From NCBI GenBank assembly GCA_016748015.1, contig JAAOMT010000009.1, positions 1,427,924 to 1,491,923 on the forward strand: a stretch of 64,000 bases of DNA, given 5' to 3'. The notes under the pieces were generated by a model that was not told the origin of the DNA, ran no database searches, and saw only the letters and a program-made list of their open reading frames with translations. This DNA is from Geosiphon pyriformis uo1 (taxonomy: Eukaryota; Fungi; Glomeromycota). A program made the position numbers and the translations under genes. Each line of letters begins with the position of its first letter. The stretch's first letter is position 1. Below are positions 20,036 through 64,000 of this stretch, one piece after another.

Positions 20036-20181
20036 GAAAAATGAGTTATTATTAGGTAAAAAAATATTGGTATAGACTAAAAAACAAAAAAACTTCTTTT
20101 TACAGAAAATGCACTTTTTGAGGATTTTTGGAGATAAGAAAGAAAGAAGTTTTTTTAATTTTTTGTATTATTATGTTCTAT

Positions 20182-23100: not shown

Positions 23101-26100
23101 ATTCATCTAATAATTTAAAAATTCAGCAATTACTTACCAATAATATTTTATCAATTATAGTCATAGAAAACTAGTCATTTGCCACTATTTTTCTCTTTAA
23201 ACTAGAAGATTCAAGAAAAACATCACTATTTAGTAAAGTTGTACTTAATATTAAACCAATTACTGTCATGTATATTAATATCAAAGTTAATAGTCATTTT
23301 ATTAAGCTAATCCTTAATAGTAATTTAGCAAACAGTATTATCACATAATAATTTATAAACCAATTAGATTATTGAGTTGATTAAGCTGCCAGTACCAAAA
23401 TTATCATTGTTAATAAAGTGACAAAGATTTTTATTGGTAAAATTAATAACTTTTTATTAGAAGTTAATGGCATTATTATGTCAATCAAAGTTTTGATAAT
23501 AAAAATTATATAATACTAAGCTCTTGTTAATAATGACTAACTCTTTAAAACCAATACAGTTCTTGACTGCAATATCTAAGAGCTTTAACTCAATTATAAT
23601 AATCAGCATATTTGGATTTTAAGTATTTGTAACTACTTCAAAACTATTACTAATATACAACTATTAATAGAGTTTAAAAAAAAACCTACTTAAGAAACCT
23701 ATCAAATTTTATGAGCAAAAAAAAATTACAATAAGTTATTACTAATATTTATATAGAAAAAAAAAAACAAATATCAGATTATTACTACCATAAATAAATT
23801 AATTAATAGTTAATATGTTTTATACTTAATACTAAAACCAAGAAAACAACTACTTTATATTCTACTTAAATACAAAAATTATAACAAAAAGCTTTTATGA
23901 ATAAAAATTTATATATAACCAGAAAAAAAATACAAAATATGTCTTTGTTATAACTGTAAAACTTGTTACCAAAAAACATTTTAGATGACCAAAACAACAG
24001 AAAAAATAAGACAATAAACTTTGTTTTACTTGCTAAAAAATTTTTTTAGATAAAAAAATATGGAACAATATTTTTGGTTGTGGAAAAACATGTAATAAAT
24101 TGTATTAATACATAATTTTTATCAATAACTAGATAAATAAAGAAATGTTTATAAATACTATATAAAACAAAAATCTTTTATATTTAAATAGTTATCTATA
24201 TAATAGAGACAAAATTTGAAGAATGATAACTGTTAAAGTTGAAGATATGTCTTTAAGCAAAATATTAAAAATTAAAAACAACTTATTAGAATCTATTGTT
24301 ATTAGTAGAATTTTAGTTATTAATTAACATAAAATTACTTTTATAATTTTTATTAGTAATTAGCATATATTATTATTATTTTAATTATTGCTTATTAATT
24401 AACTAAATTATTAAATATTACTATTTAATTAATAATCTAATTGGTATAATATACAAATATAATAATTAGATCATATAATATACTAAACTTTATAACATTC
24501 AAAAATTTGCAAAATATTTTAATAGTTTACCAAAATTATTTATAGTTTGTAAAAATATTTGTAATTTGTTAAAATATATTTTTAGTTCATCAAAATTATA
24601 GCAAAAAAAAAGTTCAAGTTTATAAAATAGTATTAAAATAAGTTATATAAAAAAAGAGTTTTTTTTTTAAGAAAATGTATTTTATTTTATTTTATTTTAA
24701 AACTATCAATCAAAGTTAAAATTAAGTATCTTTCACATATTTTTACAAAAATAATAAAAATATCAAATACTTTGAAAAATTTTTAGATACTTCTGACAGT
24801 TTTCTACCATATATACAAAAATTTTACAGTTATTAATATATATTATAAGTTAAACTATTTCTATCTATTATCAAATTTCTTAAATTATATACACTTAAAA
24901 TTTTTCAAATCTCAACTAATATTTTAAAATTAATTAGCTATCAATTTTAGTAATTTATTAGTAACTTCAAATTTAAACAAAAAACAATTTTCTTAACAAA
25001 TTTTTTTTTATTTTTTTATTATAATTATTAAAGTAGTTTTCAAATAAGATTTCTGTAGAAAAATTGACTTTTATAACAAGCTTTCAAATTAACAATTCCT
25101 GAAAAAAAGTTGACTTTTATTACAAAATAACTATATAAATAATTAGCACAGAATTGGCTATTCTATTTATAAATCCAGTAGTTTAAATTATAAAAGATAA
25201 TTTAAAGATAAATTTAGTTATCAAAAATTCACTAGCTTTCAATAATTATGAATTAACAACAAATCAACATTAACAATATTTAAAAAAAGAAACCAAAAAC
25301 TTTTAGTAATATCATTTTTATTTCAAATTCAGATATTTTTATTAATATTATAAATAATCCAAAACAATTCCATAAATACTACCAAGACTTAATACTTACT
25401 AAAAAAAACAAAAGCAAAGACTAAAACAACTAAATACCAGACTTTGCAAATATTGTTTAACTTCAAATATTGTAATAATTGTGATCTCATTTATAATTTA
25501 CCATCATAAATAATTTATTTAATTCTTAAAGAAAAAAAACCAATCAGCAGATATGCATAAAAATTGAAATTAAAAATCAATTGTGATTTAAATTTTGACA
25601 ATAATAACAACAATGATTTCAATATTGTCCATAATGACAATAGTAATATTAATTCAAACTTTAATTTAAATTCCAAACAATATATTACACTTCCAGATCT
25701 TTTTATAAAGCAAGAACTTAAATAGTTCAACAATAATAACAAAAATATTATGTCAGAATATACACAGATTACCAATACAGAATTTGATCTTAAATACTCT
25801 AGTTTTTTACTAACAAAAACAATTTTAGAAAAAAAAATAATAAAGTTAATTTAAGATAAAGAATTAGAAGATTTTGAAAATTTAAAAAATTTTGACAGAG
25901 TTTAATATTAAAAAAAGAATAATATTATTCATAAAAAATAAAAATTATTATAGTTAAATAAAACAGCCAATAAAAAATAGATATAGCAAAAAAAATTTTA
26001 AAATTTCTTTTAAAGAATTTCAGAATTATGTATATATAGCAATAGTATTAAAAACAAAAAAAACCAGTTCTTAAAAACAAAAAGTTAGTAACAAGTTAGT

Positions 26101-26311
26101 TATAAAATATTAAAAGATAGTTTTCTATATCTTGAAATAGAATTATATTTATATTAATAAAATACTTATTTATTATCCAATTTATATTATTCTTTTTATT
26201 GAATTAAAATTGTTATTTCTTAACTCTATTAATAATTTATATTATTAATATTTTTTATTTAATTATATTAGATTAATAGTTTTTGATTATGGCTATTAAT
26301 AAAATACTAAT
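20182..26311 (+). mobile_element. Heavily degenerate Ty3/Gypsy element (same lineage as those at 35875 and 53537), internally deleted, 3' LTR truncated
   Basis: 5' LTR about 20182-20972; decayed PBS TTTGGTATTTTTTGTGA at 20973; remnants of gag, protease (about 23250-23550) and the Cys-rich domain; dUTPase start at about 25760-25800 jumps to the ORF3 end and PPT (about 25909-25922); 3' LTR 25923-26311 repeats about 20182-20630. Confidence 0.8.
24297..25311. repeat. Degenerate solo LTR (family B) nested in the Gypsy remnant
   Basis: Colinear similarity with 58560-59539 along its length; TGTTA start and decayed TAATA end; flanks CTAT/TCAT are compatible with a CCAT TSD. Confidence 0.75.
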
Positions 26312-35539: not shown

Positions 35540-36746
35540 GGTGAAATTTCATTTTGGTAAACAGAATTTATAAGAGTGTAAAACCAAAGTCATAATGATG
35601 ATATATTATGATGAAAGTCTTACATAATCATAATATTGACGTGGGAAAATTTAACATTTAATTTGAAATCTGATTTTTATTATCATTATTATTTTTAATT
35701 AATTTGTTTTTTAAATATTATATATATATTTAAATTATTATTTTATCACATTTAAAACAAATAGTAAAATGTTTGCAATTTTTATTTTTAAAGTAAAAAC
35801 AGTTAAATAGTGTTTTTTTTAATTTTTTTATTATTAAACATTTTAATGAGTAAAATCCAACTACTATTTAACATTGTTATCATTGATTATTTGGGGTCTC
35901 AAAGCAAATAATAAACTCGTAACTTGGTGCTCAATTGATATACTGCTGTTAATTTCTGAAGGTTTTCGTAATTTGAAGGTTTTGGTTGAGTCCTTTGTAT
36001 AATGAACAGAGATTCAATTGATAATTTTATCCATAGCTTTCTGAAACTACAGTTTCGTCAATTTCTTTCTCAACGTGATGGCCAGTAATCTTCTTGGTAA
36101 GCTATTCTCAAATCTGAGTGTCTACCCTTATTTCTGGGTCTTTTATTAATGCTATATCCTGATGTTAGTATCTCTGCATGTAAATCCTTTTAATTAAGTT
36201 AACAAACAACAAAGAAAATAAAGCAAGAAAAAAAATAAAGAAAATAAGAAAAATAAGCCAAGACAATTTGCATGTTAGTATCCTATCAATAGTCATAATC
36301 AAGAGCTATTGTTCCAGTATGATTAAGTATCAATTACTATCAACATAAAGTGTTGATAGTGGAGAGTGGATTAAGATAGTGAATAATTATTTATTGATAT
36401 TTGTGATGTGGAAGGTTGCTTAGATCAAATCTAAACTAAAAGATCTGTTTTTTTTTTTTCTAATGCTACCACTATATATACATAATTAATGTTCTATGAG
36501 ATTGCTCATATTCCTGAGCAATGTGTTATAATTTCTTGAACAATGCTCACATTGCTAAGCAATGTGTTTTAATTTTCTAATATTGCTCTATATTGCTGAG
36601 CAATGTGCTGTAATTTTCTGATATTGCTCCATATTGCTGAATAATGTGCTGTGATTTCTGACATTGTTTCATATTGCTGAGCAATATGCTCACGTGTTAA
36701 CTATTACTCTCTTATTGGTCTACTATTTTCTATATCTGTTTTTCTT

Positions 36747-37382
36747 TTAATATTGAGCTCTGTTAAAATCCTCATTTTGAGTTATGTCGAATATTTCTTT
36801 CTCAAGTAGTGTCTGTTCTATCCTACTTTTTATTTCTTCAATTTGTGAGTTGTTCATTTTTTCTTATTGGTTAATAGTTATTGTTTTCATATTAGAGTGT
36901 AACAATACTTCTGGGTAGTTTTGAAATATAGTGTGTAGTCAATAAATGGTCTTAACATATAGTGTTATATTTGTTTTCTTTCCAATAATGTCTTCAATGT
37001 TCTGAATTATCTCTTAATTAAAGATTTTTTTGGATTTGTCAAGATATAACTTCTGTATATCTACTTTTTATCCCAATTAATAGTAGCAGTATAGTATTGG
37101 AAATTGGTCTATTCATTGGTTCTAATTTTTTTTAGTCAATTCTTCTGTTGGAACCATGATTGTTATCTTTTCAAAAGTGTTCTTTACTTTTTCTATTATT
37201 TTATCTGACCAGTTTATTGATTGTTTCTGTGGTCGCTGATATAGTGTACTTTTTTCTTTTTGTTTGGTGTTTTGATAACAAATTGTTTGGTTGTTGATGA
37301 TAATTTCCATGTTTACTTGCTGTTGACTTAAAGCCTGAAACAATTGTTAAGCTAAAATGTGAATATAGTTTAGTATTTCCAT
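36747..37382 (-). pseudogene. Gypsy-1 ORF3 (211 codons, unknown function, several nonsense mutations)
   Basis: ATG at 37382, TAA at 36747-36749; one frame colinear with 54317-54952; the stops correspond to TGG/CAA/CGA codons hit by transitions. Confidence 0.65.
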
Positions 37383-40300
37383 TTTTTTTTGTTGCTTTTG
37401 TCATGTATACTGTGTCTTTATATAATCTTTTGGTTGTTCAATTTGACATGTTTGGTTTAATGATTATAATTGGTTTTAAATCTTATAAAATCTTATCTGG
37501 TTGAACTAATGTTCTCTGTACTCTTAATTGTAGAATATTATTAGTGGATGATGACACTATATGATAATATGGTTTTAGTCAATCACCATGTGCTGCTTTG
37601 GCTAAGATTTTGTTGTTCCATCTTAATTTAAAAGCTTTATTTCCTAAAATTTCTTCTATGTAAAATGGTTTGTCTCATTTGGGGTCAAATTTTCTATTCC
37701 ATTGTTTTTTCACTTTAGTATGATGTAAAAGTACTTTGTCTTCAATCCTGAATTTAACTGGTTTATCTGATAGTTGGTTATTATGTCTTTTTTTTGTTTC
37801 TCTTATGACTTTTGGATACTATCAGCTGCTTTTTGCCATTTGTTTTTCAGTATCTCCATTAAGTCATATGTTTTTCTCAACAATGTTCTTTGAAAATTCT
37901 TTTCTGTTATTGGTTCTGTTGAATATATTCTGACTTCTATCTTAACTGGTAATGTTGCTGTTTTACCATATACTAATTCAAATAGTGTTGTTTGTGTAGT
38001 GTCTTACTTCATTGTCCAGTAAGTGAATAATACTAATGGTATGAACAAATCCCATTTATCCTGGTTTTCTTGGCTGATCTTGGCTATTGTTTTACACAGT
38101 GTTCTGTTAAATCTTTCAACTAACTCATTTGTTTGTGAATGGTATGGTAATAATAATAGTCTTTTTATCCCAAATCTCTGACTTAATTCTGCCAATATTC
38201 TATTTACAAGTTCTTTGATCTGATAGTAGTTCTTTTGGACATTTGTGTCAACAGATCAAATCTTAATGAATGAATTCAGCAACAAATTTTGCATCTGCTT
38301 TTTGAATGGCTTTTGCTTCTGGCCATTTAGTAAGATAATCCATGGTTATTGCAATATATTTGTTGCCTCTGCTGGTGATTGTTAATGGTCTGATTAAGTT
38401 AATTCCGATATGATTAAATGGTTGTTCTATTTTGATTGGTCTCAATGGTTCACTGGGTTTTGTTCTACCTTTTCTTTGACAAGCATCACAATTTTGAATA
38501 TATTAGATAATATCTGGATACATTAATGGCCAATAGTATTTTTTTTTGGTTTTTTCTATTGTTGCTTCTTTATGAAAATGTCCTGCTGTTGGATTTGAGT
38601 ATATGTTGAATAATATTGTCTCTTTTTTTGGTTCTGTAATTACTCTGGTTGGTTGATCTAGATTTCTTTTGTTCTTCTAGTAGAGTATATTTTGATGGTT
38701 GATAAAATATTTTGATAGTTGTTTTATGTTGTTTTGTTCTTTCTGAGATAATTTTTTCTTGAACAATTGGGTATTTATATAATGTTGGAGTTGTTGGTAT
38801 TTTTGTATATTCATCTTTTGTTATATTTTTGGGTTGAAATGTTTTTAAATTTGTTTCATTCACAACAGACTGTTAGCATTTCCGTTTTCTTTTTCTTTTT
38901 TGTAATGTACTATATAATTAAATAGTAAAAGCTCTATTTTCCATCTGGCATGACAATCATTTCCAAATTTTTGCTTCTGGATTGAAATCAATTCTTTGTG
39001 ATCAGTATATACATCAAACTTTTGACTCAAGTATTTTTTTCATTTGATGACAGCCTAATAGATTGCTAAGTGTTTCAATGCTGGAGTTCCATAGTTTTTT
39101 TCAGCTGAACTTAAGCTGTGGCTAGCATATGCTACTGGGTGTTTTCATCTATCTGGTCTTTTTTGAGATAGTACTGCTCTTAATGCTTGACTTAATGTGT
39201 CTGTTGTAATTATGGATGGTTTACTATAATCTGGATAGATCAATACTAAGGCTTGAATAAACTTTCTTCTTAATGTATCAAAAACTTTTTGCTGGGTTTC
39301 TGTCCATTTATATTTCGTGTTCTTTGTTTGTAGTTGATATAGTAGTTGAGCTATTTTGAAAAAGTATTTGATAAAGCAATGGTAGTAATTAGCAAATTTT
39401 AAGAATATTCTTAATTTTGTGAGATTATTTGGTACTGGAAAGTTTTTAACAATCTTAATCTTATCTGAATTTGTTTTAATACTATCTTTGCTCATAATAT
39501 GTCCCAAAAACTTGAGTTCTGTTTTACCAAAAAAGTATTTGTTTGCATTTAATTTTAATACTGCTTATCTGAATCTTTCAAATACTTGTTGGAGATAATG
39601 CAGATGATCATCAAATGTTTTTAAAAACACATTGATGTTGTCCAGATATACAATTACTGATTTCCATAGTAGTTCCATATAAACAATTTCCATAAGCCAT
39701 TAAAATATGACTGGAGCATTCATCAAGCCAAATGGCATTACTTCAAATTCGAAATTTCTTTTTTAAGTTGTAAAAGCTGTTTTTTTCTTGTCTTTTGGTT
39801 TCATGACTACTTGCCAGTAACCACTATCTAAGTTTAAAGTCAAGAACCATTTCTTTCTTTCAAAAATATTGAACAGCTCTTGGATCTTTGGTGTTAGGTA
39901 ACTATCTTCTTTTGTTATTCTATTCAGTTTCTGGTAATTCACACAAAAGTGGATTTTTCCATTTTTCTTATGAACTAGTACTACTGGTGATAATTATAGG
40001 CTCATTGATGGCTAAATTAGCCCATTGTCAAGCATCCAATTGATTTCTTGACAAATGATCTCATAGCTGGCTGGTGGTACTCTGTATGCTCTTTGTTTGA
40101 TTAGCATTGCATTTCCAGTCTTGATCTAATGCTGGATTATGTTAGTTCTGCCAAATTCATTTTTGCTGGCAAAAATGTTATTAAAGTTGTTGAGTAACAT
40201 CTTGAGTTGTATCCATTGAAGTGGGTCTAAGTTTCCCAAGTTCATTTGTTCCAACTGTTCTGGCTGGAGCAAATAGTATTTTTCTCATCTGTATATTGTT

Positions 40301-41031: not shown

Positions 41032-41857
41032 TGTTACAAGTAATTTTTTGGGGTCTTAAATCAAATAACAAACTCATAACTTGGTGCTAAAAGTTATTCA
41101 CATTGATGTTAATAATCTAAAGATTTTATATCTGAAGATTTCGGTTTGAGTTCTTTGTATAATGGACAGAGATTCAATAGTTGTTTTATCCATAGCTTCC
41201 CAGAATCACAATTCTGTCAATTCTTCTCTTGGCGTGATGGCCAACAATCCTCTGGTAAGTATTCTGTATCTTCTGTACATGTTTTACCCTCTCACAGAGG
41301 TTTTTTACTAGACAATCCTTGATGTTAATAATCTAGCGCTTTATTCAACTAATTAGTGCACAACAATGAAACCAAAATAAAAATAAAGAAAAGAAATAAA
41401 AGAAATAATGAATAAGCCAAGGTGGTTTTGCAAATTAGTATCCTGTTAATAGCCATGATCAAGAGCTATTGTTCCAGTATGTTTAAGTATCAATTACTAT
41501 CAACATGAAGTATTAATAGTGGAATTAGGTTTGAAATACCAAATAGTTATTTATTGTGTTTGGAAGGTTGTCTAAATGAAATTTAAACTGGGAGGTCTGT
41601 CTTTTCAGCTTCTCATACTACTGCTATATATACATAATTGAGATTTCTTGATTTCTCAATTTTTCACAACAGGAATTCTGCAATTTCTTTGAGAGAATCC
41701 TGGAATTCTGGAATCCTGCAATTCCTCGTGAGAATTCTGTAATTCCTGGAATCCTGCAATTCCTGAAAGGAATCCTGGAATTCCACATTTACTATGTTTA
41801 CTTCTGATTGGCTAATAACTATGCTAATATATATTCTCTATAATTCTATGAGTAACA
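41032..41857 (-). repeat. Solo LTR (family A variant with a different U3 repeat module) inserted in the Gypsy-1 dUTPase
   Basis: TGTTA...TAACA termini; TSD CCAG/CTAG; removal restores HNTDAGFDLRY. Confidence 0.9.
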
Positions 41858-48800: not shown

Positions 48801-51800
48801 AAACTAAACTGTAACTGGTAGCCAATAATAAACTGCAAAATAACTGATACCAAATATAAAAACTGCTTATTTATAATCACTTTTCTTAATACTACATTAG
48901 AGAAGAATCTGATATCAGAGTAAATCTTGGCCAAGCTAGACTTGAACAAACCATTAGTTGACAAAAAAATTCTCAAGTATTTATGTGGCTCCCCACTTTT
49001 GACAATTGAAATTAACAAACCACTGATTTTTAAAATGACATCTTTGACTCTGCAATTGATAAGAATAGCCACCATTTTATCATTATTAATTAATATATTA
49101 TTTATCAAAAAAATTTACTGGCAATGTCCAATATATATTGTGTAGATGTTTGATTATTCCTAATTCAGATAGTATTATTAACAAAAGTCTCAGCCACAAA
49201 AAAAGAAGTTTTCTCTCTTTTGGCCTTAATTTTATTTGTCTTAGTTACAAAACTAGTGTTCATATAGTATATACACAAATATTTATGTCTCTTTACTTTA
49301 CACAAAAAAGAGTCATAAAAGATCTTCTAAAAAAGAGGAGAGAACACTTTACTCTAATTCAAACTATTATGTACTTAATAACTATTAGAAAGACTGAAAT
49401 CTGTTATTATTTTATTCACCCTATTTTTATAAATAGAGCCAAAAAAACTGATAAACCTTTTATACATTCTGATACATTATAAACTAGTCTTTAAATAAGT
49501 CCAGCCAACAGAATCATATATCTTTTGTATGTTTTGCAAAACCAACCAAATTTTTTTGTTCTTTTCCAAGACATCTTTAATAACAGACCCAACAACAAAA
49601 ATGGAGTGACTGTATTAAAGTACTTCTTAAAACAAAAAAGTTGTCTCTATAAAACACATCAAATCAATTATAGGCAAAAGAGATTTGGTCTAAAAGAATC
49701 TTAGAAAGAATTTTTCTGGCTGTTTTGATTAAAACTATAAGTTAAGTATTTATTAAGACCCCATTTTATTTATAAGACTTAAGTATTATTGAAATTCAGG
49801 CTCTCTTTTACAAAATTGGAGCCATATTCAAAGTCAAACACTCATTCAAAAGACCCAAAAAATACTCAAGAACATTCTCATCACAATGCTTCTACAACTT
49901 ATTAGGAATGTTATTTAATCTAACAGTCTTTTTATTGGGCAAATTTTTGACCACTTGTACCAAATCTTCTAAATTAATGGTATCTATAATACCTAAGAAT
50001 GTATTAATATCTATATAAACCAAAAGAGCATATTGATTAGCCCAAAGTCCAGACAGAAATTCATGAATCAAATGTTTTCTAGTTTAATTCTCTATAATAG
50101 TATTAACCTTAATTTTAACATCCACAGGTTCCAGAATTAACTTATTATTGATGACCAAATGGTCCAATACTACTTTATAAAAAGGCTTTTTCAAAATGTT
50201 CTTGATTATGTAACTCTTGTTCAAACTAAAGTTTTCCATTCTTTTCTTAATAGCACACTTAATAGCTGCTTTTTCAGAAGTCTTAGACTCATATATTTTA
50301 GACTTGCAATAACTTTTTTGTATTCTAGATAAATACCCAAAATTTTTTATTAACTTGGTATTACTCTAAATTATATCTTGCATTTCTAAAGCTTTATCTT
50401 TGTCAATAATCAACCAAGTGCAGAACAAGAAATCAGTTCTAAGCACATCCTCTGTTCTTAAAACATTGGCCATTTTAGCAACCAGTATTTCCAACTTAAA
50501 AAATCTTGAAGAATATTTGTTTTTTAAACAATTAAAAACATTGAACCAATATCTACAGAAAACTTCATTAGCCAAATCTGCTATTACTTTTCTCAACATT
50601 CCTCACATTAAATTCAAATCACCAACAATCTTTGCCTCCATAAATACATTTGTTATAATTGAAAATTTTTTAGAAAAGCACTCTTTAAAATAAGCCTATT
50701 TGATTTCATCTGTGTTTTTTATTCTGAATTTTCAGTGATTTTTATTAGCTTGTTTGTGCATGCTATTTAATTAAACATTCAAAAAACAATCCAAATTAAT
50801 CAAAACTGAAACAGCTTTATGGTTAGTATTGAAAAACTCAAACATAAAATCGACTTTGTAATTTGCAACTACAGATAACAGACTTTCACTTACCAAAATG
50901 TAATCAATGATTTTTTCAATACTCTTTAAGTTGTTTCAAGTAGAGGTTTTAACCAATAGATGCTTACCAAATAAATTAACCAGATCTAAATTCAAACAAA
51001 ACTTAAAATTTATACTCTTTTTAGATCTATTCTTATTGAAATCTCCATTTAAGACCATAAAACTACTAGAGTTAACTGTCTTAGCTATGAAAGAGTTAAT
51101 TTTCAAAGCTTAACCAAACCTAATCTTAACAGAAGCACCAATATACAAACCCAAAATTGTAATTAAAAGCTTGTTTTTAAAAAGAAGCCACACTGAAACA
51201 ATTCAACCAAGAACTTTTTCAATTTTTAAAACATGGTATACTAAAGAACTGTTCATTATAATGGTCATTTCAGCACCAAAAAAATCCTTATCTAAACCAG
51301 ATACAAAAATCCACATCTTTTTAACCTTGTTTATAATCTAGGAACTAATACTAAACCTTAACTTTGTCTTAGTGATAATTGAAATTATGTTGTCAAACTC
51401 TATATATCAGCATATAATGTTCTTTTGCTTAGCTAGAACATTGATATTACAAATATTACACATAACAACTTTCTATACTAAATCACTCATTGGGATGAAA
51501 AATGCATTAAAAAATCTGAAACAATACACAAATAATCTAATTTTACCAAAACAAAACTAACAAAAGCCTTAAAAGCCACCAATTTAGATTTTAAACTGTT
51601 TACCTTAGTGGTCAAGACCTTTAAATTACTTAAATTCAAAACCAAAAATTCAATAGTAATTAGAAAAGAAAATGAAAAAACAACTTTTAAGCCATCTAAT
51701 ACCATTTTCAAATCCAAATTCAAATCAGTAATAATTAAACCAGCTGAGTTATGAAGAGAAGAAAAAAGAGCCAAAAACACTAAATTCACATTGTTGAACT

Positions 51801-54316
51801 TGTACACTATACTAGACATTTGATCCAATAAAAGCTCTAAAAAGCATTCTAAAGACAACAAATAAGCATTTAGAGAAAAGTTATTAATTGAGGTGGAATA
51901 AGACTTTTTATTAAAACTTAAGGCACTAGAAGAAGGAAAACTAGAACCAAAGAAAAAATCATAAAACACAGATGCTATTAAGACCATTTAAGCCCAAGAT
52001 TTATCACCAAAAGCAGCAGAACAAAAGATAAAAATGTTCTTCTTGACATACAGCTTGGCTAGTTAAAGATAATTTGTATCTGAAGTGGTTTTTTTAAATA
52101 ATTTTGAAGGCTTAAAAGTAAACACACTTGTTGTATTACATTTCAAAACAGAATGACCAAATTTCTCATACTTTTCACATTGAACCAAATTTATCCTAGC
52201 TCATAAGAGTTTTATGTCATCAAAAATTGGCTTTATGTAAAAAACAGATTCCAGTTCTTTATTAGAATTGAAACCAATCACAGCATAGTAAATCCAGTTG
52301 CCAGTATTGAATAAACAATTAATAACACATGTTTTCCCACCAGTTTTTTTCAAAAGAGTTCCAAAATCATAAACAGTTGTTTCTATAGGCAAAGTAAATA
52401 GAAGTGTTCTGAACTAATCTCTAAACATTTAAGTACTGCAATTTTCTATAGTTATAGCTACATGCACCAAATTTTTTCCAATTAAAAATAACTATTTAAA
52501 AGCTAGTTGTTTAGTCTGACCCAATTTAGTGAATTTTACCACAGCCTTTTGCCATATACCAATTAATTAAATTTTAATTGACTTAATTTGGCCAAACTCA
52601 GATACTATGGCAATGATTATATTCTTTGACATGTCTATAGAAATTTTCTTGATTATCACAGTCCAATCTGACCTAATTTTTTGTTTTTTGAGATTAATGT
52701 TTACAATAATTTTTTTTTCTTTAGCCAATAATACAGCTCTTTTTATGCTTTCTTTAGAAGTAAATATTAATTGGATAATTTTCTTAAATTTTGAAAGGGT
52801 AGTGGTCTCCCCAAAACCATTGACAGTTGAAAAATTTTTTCTAATTAATTGTGTCTTTGCTATAGCTAATTTGTCTTCTACTGCAGAAAAATTAATGTCC
52901 AAGGCAAAAAACTTCCTGATTGGCACTTCTACTTAAGTTTTAATAATTTTAAAGTCAGCTTATCTTCTGTTTAGAGAGATACCAAAAGGAAAGAAAAGAA
53001 GTTTCACTTTATTATTCATTTTAAAATTCAGAGAACTGAGAGAAGAGCCATAAATCATTTAGTATTTATTCTTTTTGCTTTAGAAGTAGCAGCAGCCAAA
53101 CCCAAAAAAGACCCATCATGTATGCCAGCCATAAAACCATTGTTCTCACTCTTATTAAACTCGCTGCTTATATTAAAATAGATACTATTATTAGAATTAA
53201 ATCTTACCAAAGAAATATCTTTCTTATCACTTAAATGCTTAATATTTTCTAATACAACTTTTTTTCTGAGAAAAAAAACCTCTAACAGAACCATAAAAAA
53301 CTTCTTTAATGTCTTTTTTTTAGTCATAACATTGTCTAAAGCAGTCTCCAGATTTATAATAAAGGGATTATTAGATTGTAAAATATTGATAAATAACAAC
53401 AGAAAAAGCAAAAAACTTTTTTTTCAAAAAATACTCTGAAAAATTTTGGACATAAAAAAGAAAGAAGTTTTTGTGTTTTTTTTTAAAATGTTTTTTATGT
53501 AATATAAAAACAAAAAAAAACTTTTTTTTTTTATGTTGTTACAAGTGATTATTTGGAGTCTCAAGTCAAATAACAAATCCGTAACTTGGTACTTAGTTGG
53601 TACTCAGATGTTGATATTTGAAGGTTTTGGTTGTGGAGTCCTTTGTATAATAAACAGAGATTTAATAATTGTTTCAGTAGCCTCCCAGAATCACAATTTT
53701 GTCAAATTTTTTTCTCAGCATGGTGGTCAGTAATTCTCTTGGTAAGTTATTCTCAAATCTATGAGTGTTCTATCCTTGTTTCATGAGTCTTTTACCAGTC
53801 TCTATGAAGTCTGTATCTCAGCACTTAATTCTTAATCAATTTAGTAAAACCAAAGAAATAACAAAAAGAAATAAAAGAAAATAAAAGAAAATAAAGAAAT
53901 AAACAAAAGCAATTGCAAGTTAGTATCCTATCAATAGCCATGATTAAGAGCTATTGTTCCAGCATAGTTAAGTATTAATTACTATCAACATAAAGTATTG
54001 ATAGTGGAGAGTGAATTTGGATGGTAAATAGTTATTTATTTGATATTTGTGAATGGAAAGTTGCTTAGATCAAATCTAAACTGAGAGGTCTGTCTTTTTT
54101 ACTTCTAATGCTATTACTATATATACATAATTAATGTTCTATGAGATCACTCACATTTCCAAGTGATGTGCTATGATTTCTTGAGCAATGTGCCATGATT
54201 TCTGACATTGCTCTACATTGCTAAGCAATGTGCTCATGTGCTAAATACTATTTTCTCATTGGTTTGCTATTTTCTATATCTGTTTTCTTTTTATAAGTAA
54301 CATTATCTCTTTTTTT

Positions 54317-54952
54317 TTAATATTGAACTCTGTCAAAATCTTTGTTTTGAATTAATTCCAATACTTTTTTTTCAAGTATTGTTTGTTTGACTCTGTTTCT
54401 CATATCTTCTACTTGTATATTGTTCATTTTTCCCCATTGGTTAATGGTTATGGTTTCCATGTCAGAGTATAACAGTATTTTTGGATAGTTTCAAAATATG
54501 TTGTGTAGTTGGTATATTGTTTTAACATGTAGTATTGAATTCATTTTTTTTCTGATAAATTCTCCAATTTGTTGTATTATGTCTTGGTTGAATATTCTCT
54601 TGGATTTGTTAGTATACAACTCCTGAATATTCAACTTCCAACCTAACTGGTAGTAACAGTATGATATTGGAAGTTGTTCTGTCCATTGCTTCCAATTTTC
54701 TTTTGTAAGTTCTTCTGTTGGTGCCATAATAGGTATTTTTTCAAAAGTGTTTTTTACTTTTTCTATTATGTTATTTGACCAGTTTTTACCATTTTTTGGT
54801 AACTGCTAATATGGGGTGTTTTTTGTCTTTCTTTTGGTGTTTCGATAGTAAATTGTTTGGTTGTTAACAATAATTTTTATGTCTAACTGTTGTTGACTTA
54901 AGGCCTAGAACAATTGTTAAGCTATAGTGTGAATATAATCTGGTATTTCCAT
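54317..54952 (-). pseudogene. Gypsy-2 ORF3 (211 codons, unknown function)
   Basis: ATG at 54952, TAA at 54317-54319; includes the listed ORF 54491-54727; same 636-nt length as the Gypsy-1 copy. Confidence 0.65.
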
Positions 54953-57900
54953 TTTTTTGGTTGCTTTTGTTGTGTGTATTGTGCCTTTATATACTTTTTT
55001 GGGTTGTTTAATTTGACATGTTTGGTTCAATAACTATGATTGGTTCCAGATCTCGTGAAATTTCATCTGGTTGAACTAATATTCTTTGTACTCCTAGTTG
55101 TAGAATGTTATTGGTAAATGATAATACTATCTGATGATATGGTTTCAGTCGATCACTATGTGCTGCTTTGGCTAAAATTTTGTTGTCCCATCTTAATTTA
55201 TAAGCTCTATTTCTAAGAATTTCTTCTATGTAAAATGGTCCATCCCATTTGGGGTCAAATTTTCCACTCTATTGTTTTTCTACTTTGGTATGATGTAAAA
55301 ATACTTTGTCTCCAATCTTGAATTTAACTGGTTTATCTGGTAGTTGGTTATCGTGTTTTTCTTTTTGTCTCTCTTGTGATTTCTGGATGTTATCAGCTGC
55401 TCTTTGCCATTTATTTTCTAATGTTTCTATTAAGTTATATGTTCTTTTTAGTAATGTTTCCTGAAAATTATCTTTGGTTATTGGTTCTGTTGGGTAAGTA
55501 TTGACTTTTATCTCAATTGGTAATATTGCTGTTTTACCATATACTAATTCAAATGGTGTTGCTTATATAGTGTCTTGTTTCATTGTTCGATAAGCAAATA
55601 ATACTGATGGTATAAACAAATTCTATTTATCTTGGTTTTCTTGACTGATTTTGGTGATTGCTTCACACAATGTTCTATTAAATCTTTCAACTAGTCCATT
55701 GGTTTGTGGATAATATGGTGATGATAATGGTCTTTTGATTCCAAATCTCTGACTTAATTCTGCTAATGTTCTGTTCACAAAGTGAGTTTTTTAATCTGAT
55801 AATAGTTTTTTTGGACATTTGTGTTGACAGATCAAATCTTAATGAATGAATTTGGCAACAGATTTTGCATCTGCTCTTTGAATGGCTTTTGCTTCTGGCT
55901 ATTTAGTAAGATAATCCATAGCTACTGCAATATATCTGTTGTCTCTGCTGGTGATTGTTAATGGTTCGACTAAGTCAATTCCAATGCAATTGAATGGTTG
56001 TCTCACTTTAATTGGTCTTAATGGTTCACTGGGTCTTGTTCCTTCTTTTTTTTAACAAGCATCACAATTTTGAATATATTGGATAATATCTGGATATATT
56101 AATGGCCAATAGTATTTTTTTTTTGGTTTTTTCTATTGTTGCTTCTTTATGAAAATGTCCTGCTGTTGGATTTGAGTACATGTTGAATAATATTGTTTCT
56201 TTCTTTGGTTCTGTGATTACTCTGATTGGTTGATCTAGATTTCTTTTGTTCTTTCAGTAAAATATATTTTGATGATTGATAAAATATTTTGATTGTTGTT
56301 TAATGTTTTTTTGTTCTTTTTGAGATAATTTCTCTTTGAACAGTTGGGTATTTATATAATGTTATAGTTGTTGGTATTTTTGTATATTCATTTTTTGTTA
56401 TATTTTTGGTTTGAAATGTTTTTAAATTTGTCTCATTCATGATAGTTTATCAGCATTTCCATTGTCTTTTCCCTTTTTATAATGTACTGTATAATTAAAT
56501 AGTGAAAGTTTTATTTTCCATCTGGCATGGCAATCATCTGCAAATTCTTGTTTTTGGATTGAAGTCAATTCTTTGTGATCAGTGTACACTTCAAACTTTT
56601 GGCTCAAGTATTCTTTCCATTTGATAACAGCCTAATAGATAGCTAAGTGTTCTAGTGCTGGAGTTCCATAGTTCTTTTCAGCTGGACTTAAGCTTCTACT
56701 GGCGTAAGCTACTGGATGTTCTCTTTCATTTGGTCCTTTCTGTGATAGTACTGCTCCCAATGCTTGACCAGATGCATCAGTAGTAATGATGAATAGTTTG
56801 CTGTAATTTGAATACATCAATACTGAAGCTTGAATAAGCTTTCTTCTTAAGATATCAAAAGCTTCTTGTTGAGTTTCTGTTTATTCATACTTTACATTCT
56901 TTGTTTAAAATTGGTGTAGTGGTTGGGCTATTTTAGAAAAATTCTTGATAAAGCAGCAGTAGTATCCAGCAAATCCCAAGAATGCTCTCAATTCTGTAAA
57001 ATTATTTGGTACTGGAAAGTTCTTAACAGTTTCAATTTTGTTTGGATCTGTTTTTATTCCATTTTTGCTTACCATATGTCCCAAAAACTTGAGTTCAGTT
57101 TTCCCAAAGAAACATTTGGTTGCATTTAATTTCAGTCCAGCTCTTCTTAACCTTTCGAACACTTGTTGAAAATGATACAGATGATCATTAAATGTTTTTG
57201 AGAACACATTGATATCATTCAAGTATACGACTACTGACTTCCATAGTAGTCCAGTGTATACAATTTCCATTAGCCGTTGAAATGTGGTTGGTGCATTCAT
57301 CAATCCAAATGGCATGACTTCAAATTCAAAATTTTCTTCTCTTGTAGTAAATGCTGTTTTCTCTTTGTTGGCTGGATCCATGGCTACTTGCCAGTAACCA
57401 CTATCCAAATTCAGTGTCAAGAACCATTTATTTCTTTCAAAAGCATTGAACAGCTCTTGAATTTTGGATATTAAATAGCTATTTCCTTTGGTTACTTCAT
57501 TCAGTTTCCAGTAATCTACACAAAAGTGGATTTTCCCATTTTTTTTTCAGACTAGTACTACTGGTAATGACCATGGGCTCATTGATGGCTGAATTAGCCT
57601 GTTGTCAAGCATTTGGTTAATTTCTTGATGAATGATTTTATGGCTAGCTGGTAGTACTCTGTATGCTCTTTGTTTAATTGGCATTGTATCTTCAGTTTTG
57701 ATCTGATGCTGGATGATGTTGGTTCTGCCAAATTCATTTTCACTGGCAAAGATGTTATTGAAGTTGCTAAGTAATGTCTTTAGTTACATCTGTTGAAGTG
57801 GGTCTAGATTCCTCATGTTTATCTGTTCTAATTGTTCTAGTTGAAGCAGATAACATTTGCTTTATTTGTAGATGGTTTGTGATGTGATGTTTACCACAAA

Positions 57901-58559
57901 GCTGTAAAAAATCTGGAATATAGTTTGGTGGTTGGTCTTCAATTTTGGTGGTTAAATATTCAATGATGATTTCTTTTGGTATTTCAATAACATGTCTCAT
58001 TGTGTTGTAGATGGGAATTTTGATATTCTTGGGGCTGTTGGCTAATATGTAGAGATTGGTAAGTTCAATTTTTCCTGATTTGCAAATAGTAGCTTTTGCT
58101 TCAAACAACTGAGCTTGATTCTTTACTTCTCTTTTTATAGCTAACATATACTGGTCATATGGTGAAATAGAAATTGTGTGATGGGTTGAGATAATTTTTC
58201 TTTTGTCAACAATTTCTTCCTCTGCCATATTAATTGGTATATCTATTCTACCCATTGATCCAAATCTTTGTATTCCTTTAGTAGTAATCTCCAATTTTTC
58301 TCTGTTTCTTACTAACACTAACTAAGCTATTTTCACCAGAGGTAAAAATATTGTCTATGCTATCTTTTCATTTGAATTTATGGTATATGTTTTTTCTGAG
58401 TCATTTTGTAGCATAGCAATAATATTTTCTATGTATTCTATGTCAATTATTTCTTCTCTGATATTGATTTTCTTTTTTGCTAAGCTACTCCTGAATGCTA
58501 ATTGAACCATTGTTGTTGCTGAAATTTTCAGCACTATTTTCAGATCAATGCAAGTGCAC

Positions 58560-59539
58560 TGTTACCAGACAAAATTAGAGATATTATTTAGCATGAAATT
58601 ATCTTATAAATCCTATCATTAATTGGCATATATTATCGTTTCAAATTATTACTTATTACATTAGCAAAATGTCCAAAATTATCATTTAATTAATAACCCA
58701 ATTTGTACACAACACAAATATAACCTAATTGTGATGATCAAATCATGCAATATTCCGAAACTATGTAACATTTAAAAGTTCACTGAAATTTGTAGAAATT
58801 TGCCAAAATAATTGATAGTTCACCGAAATATCTAATAGTTTGCAGAAATAACTTGTAGTTCACCAAAATGTATCTTTAGTTCAGCGAAATTGTAGAAAAT
58901 AGCAAAGTTCAAGTTCATAGAATAGTGTTACGACAAGTTGTATAAAAGAAGAGCATTTTTCTTCAAGAAAATATATCTTACTTTAGATTTATCACTTAGA
59001 ACCATTCCTACACCCACACAAAAAGAAATAAATATCAAATAATTCAAAAAACCAAATTCTTTTATTATTGTACTTGGAAAATCCTTAAAAACCCAACTAA
59101 CGTTTTGAAATTGATTAGCTACCAATTTCAGTAAACTGTTAGTGACTCCAGGCCTGGATAGAAAACGTTTCTTTTGACAAAATTCTATTTCTTTTACATT
59201 TCTTTTATTTTTTTTCTTTTCTTATTACAATTATTAAGGTAGCCTACAGACAAGATTCCTGTAGAAGAGTTGACTTTCACAGCAAAGTAACTATACATTT
59301 TAGTGAGCTTTCAGACAAGCAATTTCTGGGAAAGAGTTGACATTTACTACAATGTAACTACATAAAGTAACTGGCAAGGAATTGGTCATTCCACTTATAA
59401 GCCCAGCAGTTCAAATTATAAGAGATAATTTGAAGATAAATTCAGTTATTGGAGGTTCAACTACTTCTAGAAAACGTGAATTTGCAACCAACAGACAGTT
59501 ACAACATTCAAGAAAAGAGACCAAAAACCTTTGGTAACA
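58560..59539. repeat. Solo LTR (family B) inserted in the Gypsy-2 dUTPase
   Basis: TGTTACCA...TGGTAACA 8-bp terminal inverted repeat; perfect TSD GCAC; removal restores KLEPHLCTCIDLK. Confidence 0.9.
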
Positions 59540-62500
59540 GCACAAGTGAGGTTCTAATTTGATAGAATCTTTCCCCAGATATCTCAGATCAAATTCTGCA
59601 TCAGTATCATGCACACATTTAGGCATAATACCTTCATTATTATTACTGAACTATTTCAGTTCTTGCTCTTTGATAAGGTTAGAAAGAGTGATATATGTTT
59701 TGGAGTTTGAATCAGAGTCTGAATCATTGTTATTTTCATTGTTGTTTTGAGCAGAGCTAAAACTAGTGTTTTTGTTATCATCATTGTCAGAGTTTGAATT
59801 AGGATTGAAAATTGATTTTAATTCTGATGCACAGTTGCTTATTGGTTTGTTTTTTTCTGAGATTGTGTAGATAATGCATGGTAGTGGATTGTAAATGAGA
59901 TCACACTCATTACAATACTTGAAGTCACATGGAATTAAACAGTGGTCACATAATCAGATGTTTATTTCTTCTAAGTGTTGTTTCTGTTCCTCTCTGATGG
60001 GTGCTAATCATTGGTAATGTTCATGGAATTCCTTTGGATTGTCCTTGATGTTGCCAAAGACATCAAAAGTTTGGACGTATTCAGGTTCAAGAAGTGATAG
60101 GAGGTTGTTTTTGATTTTCAGTAGTTCACTGGTTGTTATGCCTTCTGTTTTCACATACACCATTCTCCAGAGTTCGTGTTTGTCATGAGAATATCCTCCT
60201 AATTGTTGTAATGCTCTTTTCCAGATGTCATCAATTGGTATGTCTTTGCGTACTCAGTCATTGATTAGGATTGTATATTGGCACATTTCATCACACATTC
60301 CTTCTTATCCAAAAATGTTGTTCTATATTCCTTTGTCTGGGAAAGTTTCTCCACAAGCTAAACATAGTGTATTATCCCATTTTTTCATTTGTTTTGGCCT
60401 TCCAAAATGTTCAACAAGACATGCACAGCAATAAAACTTAGTTGCCATCTGGTATTTTTTGTCATTATTACAGCATGTGCCCATTAAAGACAATTTCTTG
60501 CTGCAATTGGCACATATAAGCTTTGGTCGATGATAATTCAGTTGTGGTAGTACATAAGTATATGCACGGTAAATGATGGTTGGTGTTGGAATTTCTTCAT
60601 TTTCTTTCTCTTTTCCTTTGTGGTTATTCTTTTCTTACTCCCAGGTTGTTGGTAGTTCATTTTGATCATTATCAGTTTTCCAGGCTTGATTCGGATTCCA
60701 GGTAAGTTCTTTTGTTTGTTTTCCTTTTCCCTTATTATTTCAGAATAGTATCAGTAGTAATTTGTTGTGGTCATTTTTATTGGCCCAAGAAACTTAATAG
60801 GCTTCCCAGGTAAGTTTTTTTTTTCTTTTTCCAATTCAATAAGTGGAGCTGATGATGTGATGATGGGTTTGAAATAGCCACATGTGGCTAGTATATGTGT
60901 GTGTCATCTATTCTGGCTAAGTTGGAGCTCTTGGGTGTTCCAGTCGAGTGTTGTGTTGATTTTGAACAGCCAGTCATTACCCACCAGTGCTTGGTATTAA
61001 GTGGCTTCTATGACTAATACCTTAATTGGTACAGTGATGCCATTGATTTCTATAAGCAAGTTATCTATTTCACCAATTAGAGTCTTGGTGGTTTCATCAG
61101 CTGTAATTATCCTTGAACTGGCAGCTTGATTAACTTGGCAACTTAATTGGTTTATGAGCTGTTTTGTAATAATGCTGCCAGCTGATCCACTATTTAGGAT
61201 CAGTTTGATAGACTGACCATCAATTTTGGCATCCATGTACATTGCCATGATAGATTTTTTCTCGAGTGCGGCTCCACTGAACAAAGGAGTTTTTGTTGGT
61301 TCCTCGATTTCAAAGGAAAATATTGCTGCTAAAGACTCATTTTCCATAACAGTGACTGGCAAAATATTGGTAAGTGGTTGCTTCTGGTTGGGTTCCCAGG
61401 TGTTGGATGAGGCATCTTCTGGGGTAACCAGAAGGCTTAAATAGTTCTGAAAACTCAGGTTTTGAGTATACCCAGTTTCCAAACTCTACTGTTGTGATCC
61501 TGATGGCTAGTTGGATGAACTAAAAATTAGTTGGTAAACAACCATTGCTGATTTCCAGTTTTGGGTAACTCTTGATTTAGAGTTTTCTAATATCATTTGA
61601 GCAGAGTTGGGTGATAGTGTTTGAACTGTGGGTGTCTGATAGATTATTTGTGGCTGCAGCTGATATATAGGTTGGGACTGCAGTTGATAAATGATGGGTG
61701 CTGTTGGCTGATAAATTGGTGGTTAATAAATTTGTGGCTGCATCATAGGTATGTAATTTGGTTGATATATTGCTGAGATTGATTGATAACTCGGAGCTGA
61801 AAACCTGTGATCAGGATTTCAATATTGATTTCCCGATCATTGGTTTTCTATTCTTAACTGACAATCAATTCTCAAATGTCCTTGTTTACCACAGTAATGG
61901 CAAATACATGTCTCTTGCTGCCATGGCTAATTGGATGATGATAAGAAATGCAACTGATTTTGTGGGCGATTTGTGATTCCTAAATTATTGTGTCATTGAG
62001 ATGGCTGATAAATTGCATAATTGTCAGCTAAGTACCCTTCCAGCTTCTAGTTAATGGAATTACTGAATTGTTTCAATTTGGAATCCAATTCAGATAATCC
62101 ATTCATTATTAGATTTATGGCTTGGGCATGGTTGGCTTCGAGTTTAGCTGCTTTAAAATCTCTGGTGTTGTTAACTGCAGCTTAAAAGTCTACTAGATGC
62201 ATTGGGCATATATGTTGGAGAATGCTACTGCACAGGCCTTTAATAAATTGGTTTAGGATTTGTGGCGCTGTAAAGTAATCAGCCTGCATTGCTTGAATCT
62301 GGCACAGATTCCTATGGAAGTGTCCTAAATAAGTAGTGACTGCTTTATTTTCTCCTTGTTTAATAGTGGTGAAAGTGTTTGCTAGCCAATTAATACTATT
62401 GTTGTTGCTGAAGTATTATAGGAATGCAAGCTTAAATGCAGCAAAATCTTGGGGTTTGTTAGCCAAGCTTTAATACTATGAATCGATGATATCTTAGAGA

Positions 62501-64000
62501 AAGTAAAGAATGGTCTGCATAGCTCTGGCATTATTTCAGCCATTGGCTGCAATGGCTTTCTCCACATTATTTAGCCACACTTGAATGTTGTCTTTTTCAC
62601 TGGTGAATTTTTCAAGTTTCACTATCGGAGTGTAAGCCATTGGATCGACGTTTGGTTGTTGCAGTTGTTGTTGTAACTGTTAAAACGGCTGCTGGAGTTG
62701 TTGAAGTGATTGGAGTAGCTGCTGTTGCTGTTCGTTAATTAGTAAAGCTGGATTAATCCCAATTACTGGAGGTAAATGTTGTTGATTATTGATGTCAGAG
62801 TTTCAATTGTTTTGATTGTGCTGTGTTTAGAAATTCGGAGTTCTGATTTCCAGATTTTCCAAATTTGGATTTTGCTGAGTCTAAAAATTCGGGGTTTCAA
62901 TGTTTGGTTTTCTGGAATCGGGTTCTGGTAAGTAAATTTTTAATCTTCAGATTCTTCTTCTTTTTCTTCTTGTTCTTTCTCCGATTTCATTACTTCCCAG
63001 AGACTCATGGTTCCAAAATCTGGTTGGGGTGGTGGAGATCAAAGTCCTGATGGCATTGGCGATTAGAACTTAAATCCTTCAAAATATGCACCATATGATC
63101 TTAGAAGATCTTCTTTTTTTTGTTTACTCTAAAATAAGAATTGTCCAAAGGTTAATGTCACATGTAATGTGGATGTGTCTGTTGATGTGATGTTGATGGT
63201 ACTTCCAAGTGTATAGTGGTATGATGGGATTGTTAATAATTCAATTCTGGTTTTCTTCCAAGTGAGTGGTTGTATTTGTTTTGGTGTTACTGCTGGTGTT
63301 TGCAATTTTTCTTTGCTTTTATTGACATAAGTGATTGGGTATCTTTGTTGTGTGTAATGTTCAATTTCTTTATTAATCTTAGTAATAATGGATGCGAAAT
63401 TATAATTTATTGGTAAGCTGGTGTTTTGGATTAATTTGTGGTAAAAAGTTTTTCTCGCTGATTCAGTATTTACTAGTGTTCTTAACAAATAGGCAATTTT
63501 TTTGTTGATGTAGAAATTAAAGGCTGATTCTGCTGATATCTAATTGTGGTTCAATCTCAAGTATTGACAGTAGTATTGAAATAAGGATTTTGTGAATCCT
63601 AAATGGTTTGCTTCTATACTTTCTGATTCTGCCACTGTTGATTTATTTGTTGGTGCTGGTTCTCTGTAGGATTATACCTTACAGAGAGCACCAAATATTA
63701 CAGATGATTATTTGGAGTCTCAAGTCAAATAACAAATTTGTAACTTGGTGCTTAGTTGGTACTTGGGTGTTGATATCTGAAGGTTTTGATTGTGGAGTTC
63801 TTTGTATAATAGACAGAGATTTAATAGTTGTTTCAGTAATCTCCCAGAATCACAATTCCATCAAATTTTTTTCTCAGTGTGGTGGCCGGTAATTCTCTTG
63901 ATAAGCTATTCTCAAATTTATGAGTGTTCTATCCTTGTTTCACGGGTTTTTTACCAGTCCCTATGACATCTGTATCTCAGCACTTAATCCTTAATCAATT

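Follow-up and report, generated by a model that had tools for sequence, protein, structure and literature searches.

The 64,000-nucleotide stretch of Geosiphon pyriformis DNA analyzed here (the window) holds two related LTR retrotransposons, Gypsy-1 and Gypsy-2, each with a further sense reading frame, ORF3, between the end of pol and the 3′ LTR. Sense additional ORFs are known from this position in Ty3/Gypsy elements, the functions of extra ORFs in LTR retrotransposons being mostly not known (PMC7264820), and an "add. ORF" of unknown function is described in fungal Gypsy elements (PMC2864245). Judged by its sequence ORF3 is a member of this class, and it raises the question of whether it was a working gene of the element, how it would have been expressed, and what its product might have done.

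The Host Elements and Their Third Reading Frame

Read along the minus strand, the elements consist of LTR, PBS, a long gag, protease, a Cys-rich insert, dUTPase, reverse transcriptase (RT), RNase H and integrase, followed by a 55-nt spacer, ORF3, the polypurine tract (PPT) and the second LTR. The domain order gag-PR-RT-RH-INT makes the host a Ty3/Gypsy LTR retrotransposon; LTRs of the TG..CA type, the PBS, the PPT (lost in Gypsy-1) and 4-bp duplications at solo LTRs were found as hallmarks of that group, and the closest named pol relatives are from Cetraspora. The 5′ LTR of Gypsy-2 continues past the window end. The coding features are:

60859..63693, minus strand: gag/protease region of Gypsy-2, with the PBS at 63693, an N-terminal gag extension and the capsid at 62640-61900
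61362-60859, minus strand: zinc knuckle and protease of Gypsy-2
57893..60586, minus strand: Cys-rich insert and dUTPase region of Gypsy-2, between protease and RT
56422..57759, minus strand: reverse transcriptase and RNase H of Gypsy-2
55008..56400, minus strand: integrase of Gypsy-2, with an SH3-type end and no chromodomain; frameshifted, with stops
54317..54952, minus strand: ORF3 of Gypsy-2, 211 codons plus stop, 4 internal stops (codons 12, 16, 49 and 154)
36747..37382, minus strand: ORF3 of Gypsy-1, 211 codons plus stop, 8 internal stops
25807..25911 (about), plus strand: ORF3 remnant of a third copy, the last ~35 codons, with the start of its dUTPase directly adjoining

The integrase matches Pfam rve above the cut-off and SH3_Tf2-1 below it (E 5.5e-5); no chromodomain is present at its end, where the SH3-type domain is followed by the pol stop about 40 residues on, which sets the element apart from chromoviruses. 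Fungal Gypsy elements of the PosPlaTy3-5 type likewise carry a dUTPase between protease and RT, but they come from a survey of chromodomain-bearing elements, the available part of which names no such third gene (PMC2864245), whereas the ORF3 elements are without a chromodomain.

Both ORF3 copies (54952->54317 and 37382->36747) consist of ATG, 211 codons and TAA, starting 55 nt from the pol stop (..PNMSN*). They align without gaps at 61% amino-acid identity and contain the peptides quoted in the original prediction, which had rightly given both as 636 nt long with no frameshift. It had also described a separate ORF, and ORF3 does run from ATG to TAA on the minus strand after pol, but neither frame is open, and both window copies of the gene are now dead. 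At 10 of the 11 stop positions the other window copy encodes Gln or Trp; at codon 12, where both copies have a stop, those intact relatives that span the site have Gln. Among the rows listed for run X1, another letter accounts for most of the depth at three of the four positions where Gypsy-2 has a stop. An open version of the frame exists in nature: G9A89_010852 (P0003), an intact Geosiphon pyriformis protein of 211 aa, to which Gypsy-2 ORF3 is 76% identical over 100% of its length.

Several other features of the window were noted. The third copy (20179-26314, plus strand) is very decayed (14-21% GC), with an internal deletion from the dUTPase to the end of ORF3; gene model P0023 has a similar join, and such derivatives may recur. 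Solo LTRs of another family lie in both dUTPase genes (41032-41855 in Gypsy-1; about 58560-59540, 1 kb long, in Gypsy-2), at homologous positions about 60 nt apart and each with a 4-bp duplication, for which a target preference is possible. Two related decayed elements (47304-53523 and 13074-20205) are LINE-like, with endonuclease and RT motifs recognized by eye, and the latter holds a solo LTR at about 14845-15736.

Decay and Selection

Decay of the elements is dominated by transitions. The LTR pair 35875-36747 / 45850-46713 has 107 transitions and no transversions over 846 nt; in the pair 53537-53845 / 63694-64000 the counts are 31 and 1 over 303 nt. Changes in the LTR pairs affect 13 of 14 CpG sites and also CpT, CpC and CpA (0.32-0.40), and the Gypsy elements are CpG-depleted, to 0.10-0.18 of expectation. 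From the sequence, this pattern resembles directed C>T hypermutation, and LTR divergence would overstate element age. A preprint reports that no RIP signatures were found in G. margarita.

The differences between the two ORF3 copies are distributed as in a coding sequence (49/34/72 at codon positions 1/2/3). Their dN/dS is 0.25 (200 codons; bootstrap 0.15-0.39), compared with 0.63 on average, and never less than 0.27, in 500 neutral simulations with the same substitution spectrum, and with 0.48-1.0 in the other five frames of the region. Since transversions escape transition damage, a transversion-only ratio was used as a second test; it is 0.30 for ORF3 (10 of 46 four-fold sites and 34 of 554 others, both small counts), 0.31 for the capsid, 0.07 for RT and 0.62-1.91 for LTR frames, and is 0.32, 0.26 and 0.41 in three parts of ORF3. 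With simulation and transversion tests in agreement, ORF3 was a protein-coding gene under purifying selection; the past selection suspected in the original prediction is borne out, the ratio lying below the neutral mean and not near 1. Like other conserved additional ORFs (aORFs), ORF3 shows conservation of the kind seen in the element's other proteins. Two further regions, the ~300-residue pre-capsid extension (63003-63641, minus strand) and the Cys-rich insert of ~230 residues that separates protease from dUTPase (59870-60556, minus strand), are also constrained, with transversion ratios of 0.22-0.42 and no Pfam match.

Integrase departs from the rest of the element. Between Gypsy-1 and Gypsy-2, the integrase region (55011-56358 vs 37440-38780) has 0-2 four-fold transversions per part (0.00-0.04), compared with 0.13-0.36 for gag, PR, RT and ORF3. 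On these small counts, integrase was likely exchanged recently between the two subfamilies, with ORF3 not included.

A Widespread Family After Integrase

Word-based protein searches with ORF3 found matches in Geosiphon alone, all 23 matches of a profile search among 3958 candidates were G. pyriformis gene models, and P0003 found no related loci in metagenome and viral contigs. Searching with integrase, for which none was found in viral contigs, returned 45 long proteins, and the top two, P0026 of Cetraspora pellucida and P0027 from JGI, have ORF3-like tails at their ends; compared singly with a profile, these tails match weakly (prob 3.7 and 0.3). Among the best 80 of 514 integrase relatives in metagenome contigs, 37 loci have at least 500 nt past integrase, and 21 of these 37 have an ORF3 homologue or probable homologue there. 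The ORF had been described as that of a Gypsy lineage, and it is found in both Gypsy-1 and Gypsy-2, but it is not confined to them, extending, as homologues or probable homologues, to these 21 loci and to Gigasporaceae. At 16 of the 37 loci no member was detected; a clade of six loci lacks any detected member, and some of the misses are at loci that end too early. ORF3 therefore seems dispensable in some lineages.

The closest relative, locus L001, has a full-length 230-aa homologue directly after pol (E 1.5e-11 among 150 downstream ORFs with a Geosiphon-only profile; 8.5e-10 among 2728 ORFs and reversed decoys), and L001 is sister to Gypsy-2 in a quick integrase tree (support 99). These comparisons establish, at the level of sequence, an ORF3 family member after integrase in the Geosiphon clade and L001. 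Iteration from Geosiphon sequences alone reached no further than L001, while iteration from L025 with no Geosiphon sequence collected 26 ORF pieces from 24 loci, together with the P0026 and P0027 tails. P0003 alone matches this wider-family profile at E 0.53. When 22 Geosiphon-type rows were compared with the wider family in HH-suite, the match was 85% (E 6.7e-6, 86 columns), the controls giving 0.07% when reversed and 6.8% for the best of 60 block shuffles (score 23.6 vs 40.6). Similarly, the Geosiphon-type profile matches that of 8 Gigasporaceae rows at 79% over 163 columns, N-terminal helix and hairpin included.

A search of 1.84 billion representatives gave 63 matches, with several more subfamilies at 30-45%. 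Twenty of the 63 were looked up, 10 being from Geosiphon and 9 from Gigasporaceae; it was the P0026 row that brought in the Gigasporaceae matches, whose scores on the Geosiphon-only profile are <10 bits. Representatives P0099 and P0121 look like repeat-protein noise. Identity between ORF3 families is 10-24%, and it is the profile-profile matches combined with the common position after integrase that make ORF3 and the wider post-integrase family probably one family.

Neighboring sequences at some of these loci were also observed. Loci L003, L007, L011, L025, L029 and L074 have, past the LTR region, a further ORF with a Cys-x2-Cys-x-Pro motif; this is apparently where the next gag begins. At L031:2985-3851 a longer, acidic family member lies 2 kb past pol; it resembles what we take to be an expanded set of hypothetical Glomeromycotina proteins, raising the question of relatives outside elements. 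At the distant locus L076 (4862-6610) the integrase end is chromodomain-like, and the env position holds a long envelope-like ORF that is outside the ORF3 family.

Our full-text literature search gave no description of the ORF3 family or of an internal promoter in Gypsy elements of AM fungi, the Geosiphon genome paper and the repeat library of PMC11952901 lying outside its scope. Overall, the family is real, wide and apparently undescribed. Its wide spread, like the TATA box described next, had been missed in the original prediction.

A Candidate Internal Promoter

The short spacer between pol and ORF3 contains a TATA-like sequence in both window elements:

55007-54953, minus strand: pol-ORF3 spacer of Gypsy-2, 55 nt, containing the TATATAAA box
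54986..54993, minus strand: TATATAAA box of Gypsy-2, 41 nt upstream of the ORF3 ATG, the predicted internal promoter
37417..37424, minus strand: TATATAAA box of Gypsy-1, 42 nt upstream of the ATG

The Gypsy-2 box has no variant at ≥8% among those listed for run X1. Across the family, a promoter test was applied to 23 of the 25 loci, L034 and L038 being excluded as near-copies of L033 and L047, with start codons hand-picked prior to inspection of the upstream sequence. TATAWAW occurs within 90 nt upstream of the ATG in 18 of the 23 loci, compared with 11% of random windows, and dinucleotide shuffles (n = 1000) of the same loci averaged 3.2 such loci and reached at most 9. Windows wholly outside pol gave a similar result, with TATAWAW in 11 of 13 (shuffle mean 2.6, maximum 7), and the motif appears in 7, 1 and 0 of 23 neighboring windows, the 7 being those at -180..-91. 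L001 has no TATA box within 90 nt of the ATG and one at about -124. On the strength of this enrichment, ORF3 likely had its own RNA polymerase II promoter, predicted to give a ~1-kb mRNA that ends at the 3′ LTR poly(A) site. Gypsy-1 has a CAG 27 nt 5′ of the ATG, which keeps splicing possible.

Third genes with promoters of their own are known from other elements. In Oikopleura Tor3b/4b the third gene is expressed from an internal promoter in pol or the post-pol spacer, as proposed here for ORF3, but it encodes a membrane Env glycoprotein (PMC4402516). GENE23 of maize Grande is non-env, nuclear and transcribed from its own promoter; unlike ORF3 it is antisense, and no homology was found (PMC7264820).

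U3 Repeats and a DNA Element at the End of ORF3

At the end of ORF3 and in the LTRs lie several short elements and repeat arrays:

54323..54337, minus strand: DNA element before the PPT of Gypsy-2, overlapping the last ORF3 codons; a damaged GGAGCTCAA-type motif
54303..54316, minus strand: polypurine tract of Gypsy-2, A-rich, adjoining the ORF3 stop; the LTR begins at 54302
53537..54302, minus strand: 3′ LTR of Gypsy-2, TG..CA
36497..36690, minus strand: U3 array in the Gypsy-1 3′ LTR, 41-bp units (4.8 copies) with ATTGC-N3-GCAAT dyads
46512-46646: further U3 array of the same dyad unit, in a 5′ LTR
15533-15666: further U3 array of the same dyad unit, in a solo LTR

The ORF3 stop had been said to abut the PPT in both copies; it does so in Gypsy-2 (54316-54303), where the A-richness of the tract likely comes from G>A damage, but in Gypsy-1 the PPT and the LTR start are gone through a short deletion. 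The GGAGCTCAA-type motif is found elsewhere in another frame (L001), past the stop (L059) and 770 nt beyond the ORF (L034). Because the motif is conserved irrespective of reading frame, the last ORF3 codons represent a DNA-level element. This changes the meaning of the deleted third copy, which had been noted to keep the same C-terminus: about 35 codons are indeed kept, but with a 9-residue insert and several stops, and as the stretch is conserved as a DNA element it is no evidence for protein function. The third copy likely retained the ORF3 end because of that element.

The Gypsy-2 3′ LTR has a U3 dyad at 54217-54229, a TATA-like box at 54125 and AATAAA at 54040. The U3 tandem units are 40-41 bp long with the dyad ATTGC-N3-GCAAT, all of the perfect dyad matches in the window (8/8) falling within U3 of these LTRs; other repeat units occur in the third copy and in a related solo LTR, and the U3 unit of the other subfamily is GGAATTCC-type. 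At the internal TATA box no dyad was found above chance. A dyad inside ORF3 with 2 mismatches was rejected as chance level (49 seen vs 45 expected). Repeats in U3 are a common feature of LTRs, and host factors could bind to them.

The ORF3 Protein

By hydropathy, ORF3 is not an env gene, in agreement with the original prediction: it is a sense ORF between pol and the 3′ LTR, but neither a signal peptide nor a membrane helix is indicated, the 19-residue maximum being 0.44 in the intact copy P0003 and <1.5 in 23 of 23 family rows. In position, sense orientation, many copies and conservation like that of element proteins it resembles the sense ORFs described in PMC7264820; those are env-like, with membrane helices, and are sometimes spliced, from which ORF3, soluble and preceded by a TATA box, is set apart by description. 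The isoelectric point is ≥8.9 in 14 of 23 rows and <8 in 9 of 23. Conserved columns are Y101, G104, R148, Y150, F153 and T169, position 148 being Arg or Lys in 20 of 23 rows.

A first AF2 model from a shallow alignment had a pLDDT of 48.9, and structure searches with it were uninformative. The second model, from the 23-row alignment (pLDDT 70, whole-model pTM 0.54), comprises a helix and hairpin followed by helices, with a core at 141-200 at pLDDT about 76-93. It gave no Foldseek match at E 0.001, and in VIA the best Z was 4.7, with TetR-like and other helical bundles tied and no known DNA-binding fold recognized; as these fold searches barely covered residues 1-43 and 176-211, the absent match does not mean a new fold. 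Pfam returned nothing above cut-off for P0001-P0003 and the 23 family rows, the hit to TTC3_9th (E 0.003-0.007, 17-18 bits vs a cut-off of 27) being rejected; PHROGs and PDB sequences gave no ORF3 match, a BFVD search gave no match to foamy-virus Tas, and P0003 has no Arg-rich stretch. Atlas feature matches were to unnamed clusters, RegA and closterovirus coat protein, all with low shared-feature counts. ORF3 thus remains what was originally proposed, an accessory gene with no match to a described family in Pfam, PDB and Foldseek.

Possible Functions of ORF3

The reading we favor, tentatively and at somewhat less than an even chance, is that ORF3 encodes a trans-activator or anti-silencer of its own LTR, as predicted from layout and protein features. 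Such a regulator fits best because of the probable separate promoter, the soluble and often basic protein, the adjoining subfamily-specific dyad arrays and the CpG-depleted element. ORF3, once under selection and now broken, would then be the third gene of a Ty3/Gypsy lineage with a dUTPase in Geosiphon-type fungi. A TATA promoter of its own, in the pol-ORF3 spacer, would have driven its transcription, and its soluble helical product would have acted back on the element and switched it on. Small size, basic charge, the absence of membrane helices and an Arg that hardly varies suggest that this product may be nuclear and bind nucleic acid, and the layout suggests that it may bind the 41-bp U3 dyad units and switch on the 5′ LTR in the manner of foamy-virus Tas.

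Tas (Bel1) offers a close parallel as a 3′ accessory gene with an internal promoter and candidate U3 target motifs, but Tas binds its internal promoter too (PMC3185757), and no dyad above chance was found at the predicted one of ORF3. The ORF3 elements are moreover fungal retrotransposons with no env, not enveloped spumaretroviruses, and Pfam, PDB and BFVD searches gave no sequence or fold match to Tas. VANC of Arabidopsis VANDAL elements is, like ORF3, element-encoded, adjoins tandem repeats that differ between related elements and belongs to a methylated genome; VANDALs are plant Mutator-like DNA transposons, unlike the Ty3/Gypsy host of ORF3, and no homology was found (PMC5735166). By analogy ORF3 may work like Tas or VANC while being a member of neither. 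Against an LTR regulator stand the lack of a recognized DNA-binding fold, the 9 of 23 rows with pI <8 and the missing dyad at the internal TATA box, and the only named Atlas leads, RegA and closterovirus coat protein, are RNA-binding proteins with low counts. More doubtful as a whole is the full two-promoter circuit, evolved independently of foamy viruses in a wide fungal Ty3/Gypsy clade, in which an internal TATA promoter would express a small protein without a recognized fold that binds subfamily-specific U3 dyad arrays and turns on or unsilences its own LTR.

With the same gene and promoter, the protein might instead work on RNA, through Rev- or CERV-like export or protection of genomic RNA or through a block of small-RNA silencing, which we consider rather unlikely. 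The protein is basic, soluble and helical, its Atlas feature matches at 0.92 include RegA and closterovirus coat protein (128-131 shared features, the usual number being 170), and some TE loci of AM fungi give rise to small RNAs (10.1101/2021.03.30.436303). A precedent is CERV of C. elegans Cer1, a non-env accessory protein of a Gypsy element (PMC10309623), but the CERV mRNA is spliced, whereas a TATA box marks the ORF3 family, and no homology was found. The missing Arg-rich stretch in P0003 and the lack of a sequence or fold match to such proteins (Pfam, PDB, Foldseek, VIA) also speak against it.

Action on the host, whether in spread among nuclei of the coenocytic hypha, as a toxin/antidote, or in modulating the cell cycle or, with the dUTPase, the nucleotide pool, is unlikely. 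An own promoter would permit timing separate from gag-pol, and the low identity between families suits an arms race, but no enzyme motif or toxin fold was found (Pfam, Foldseek, VIA).

Less likely still is a role in integration or in the particle, with the protein serving as a cofactor such as a chromatin tether for integrase that replaces the chromodomain. ORF3 directly follows an integrase without a chromodomain, the P0027 gene call is continuous with pol, and both nested insertions of the window lie in dUTPase genes; however, integrase was apparently exchanged recently and ORF3 was not (0.00-0.04 vs 0.13-0.36, small counts), and a particle part needs no separate promoter. The "targeting factor" of the original prediction is weakly disfavored by this apparent exchange and by the SH3-type end of integrase. 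That ORF3 is a passively carried captured fragment, or conserved as DNA or RNA elements only, is largely refuted and very improbable: both copies are broken and the last codons are constrained as DNA, but codon-specific selection runs along the whole of ORF3 in all three parts, and intact frames follow integrase in deeply diverged elements.

Implications

A set of "hypothetical" Geosiphon and Gigasporaceae proteins is explained by this family as retrotransposon genes. If the ORF3 protein proves passive or of little help to the element, a new annotation is all that is gained. The family is wide and has intact natural members, and it sharply predicts a capped RNA of ~1 kb whose 5′ end lies about 30 nt past the TATA box. 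If the two-promoter circuit is true, it would amount to a regulator in the style of complex retroviruses in a fungal retrotransposon that lacks env, and it could account in part for the LTR expansion in Geosiphon, where LTR sequences make up 41.2% of the genome (PMC11952901). With a predicted ~1-kb RNA and a defined 41-bp candidate target, escape from methylation in AM-type fungi would become directly testable.
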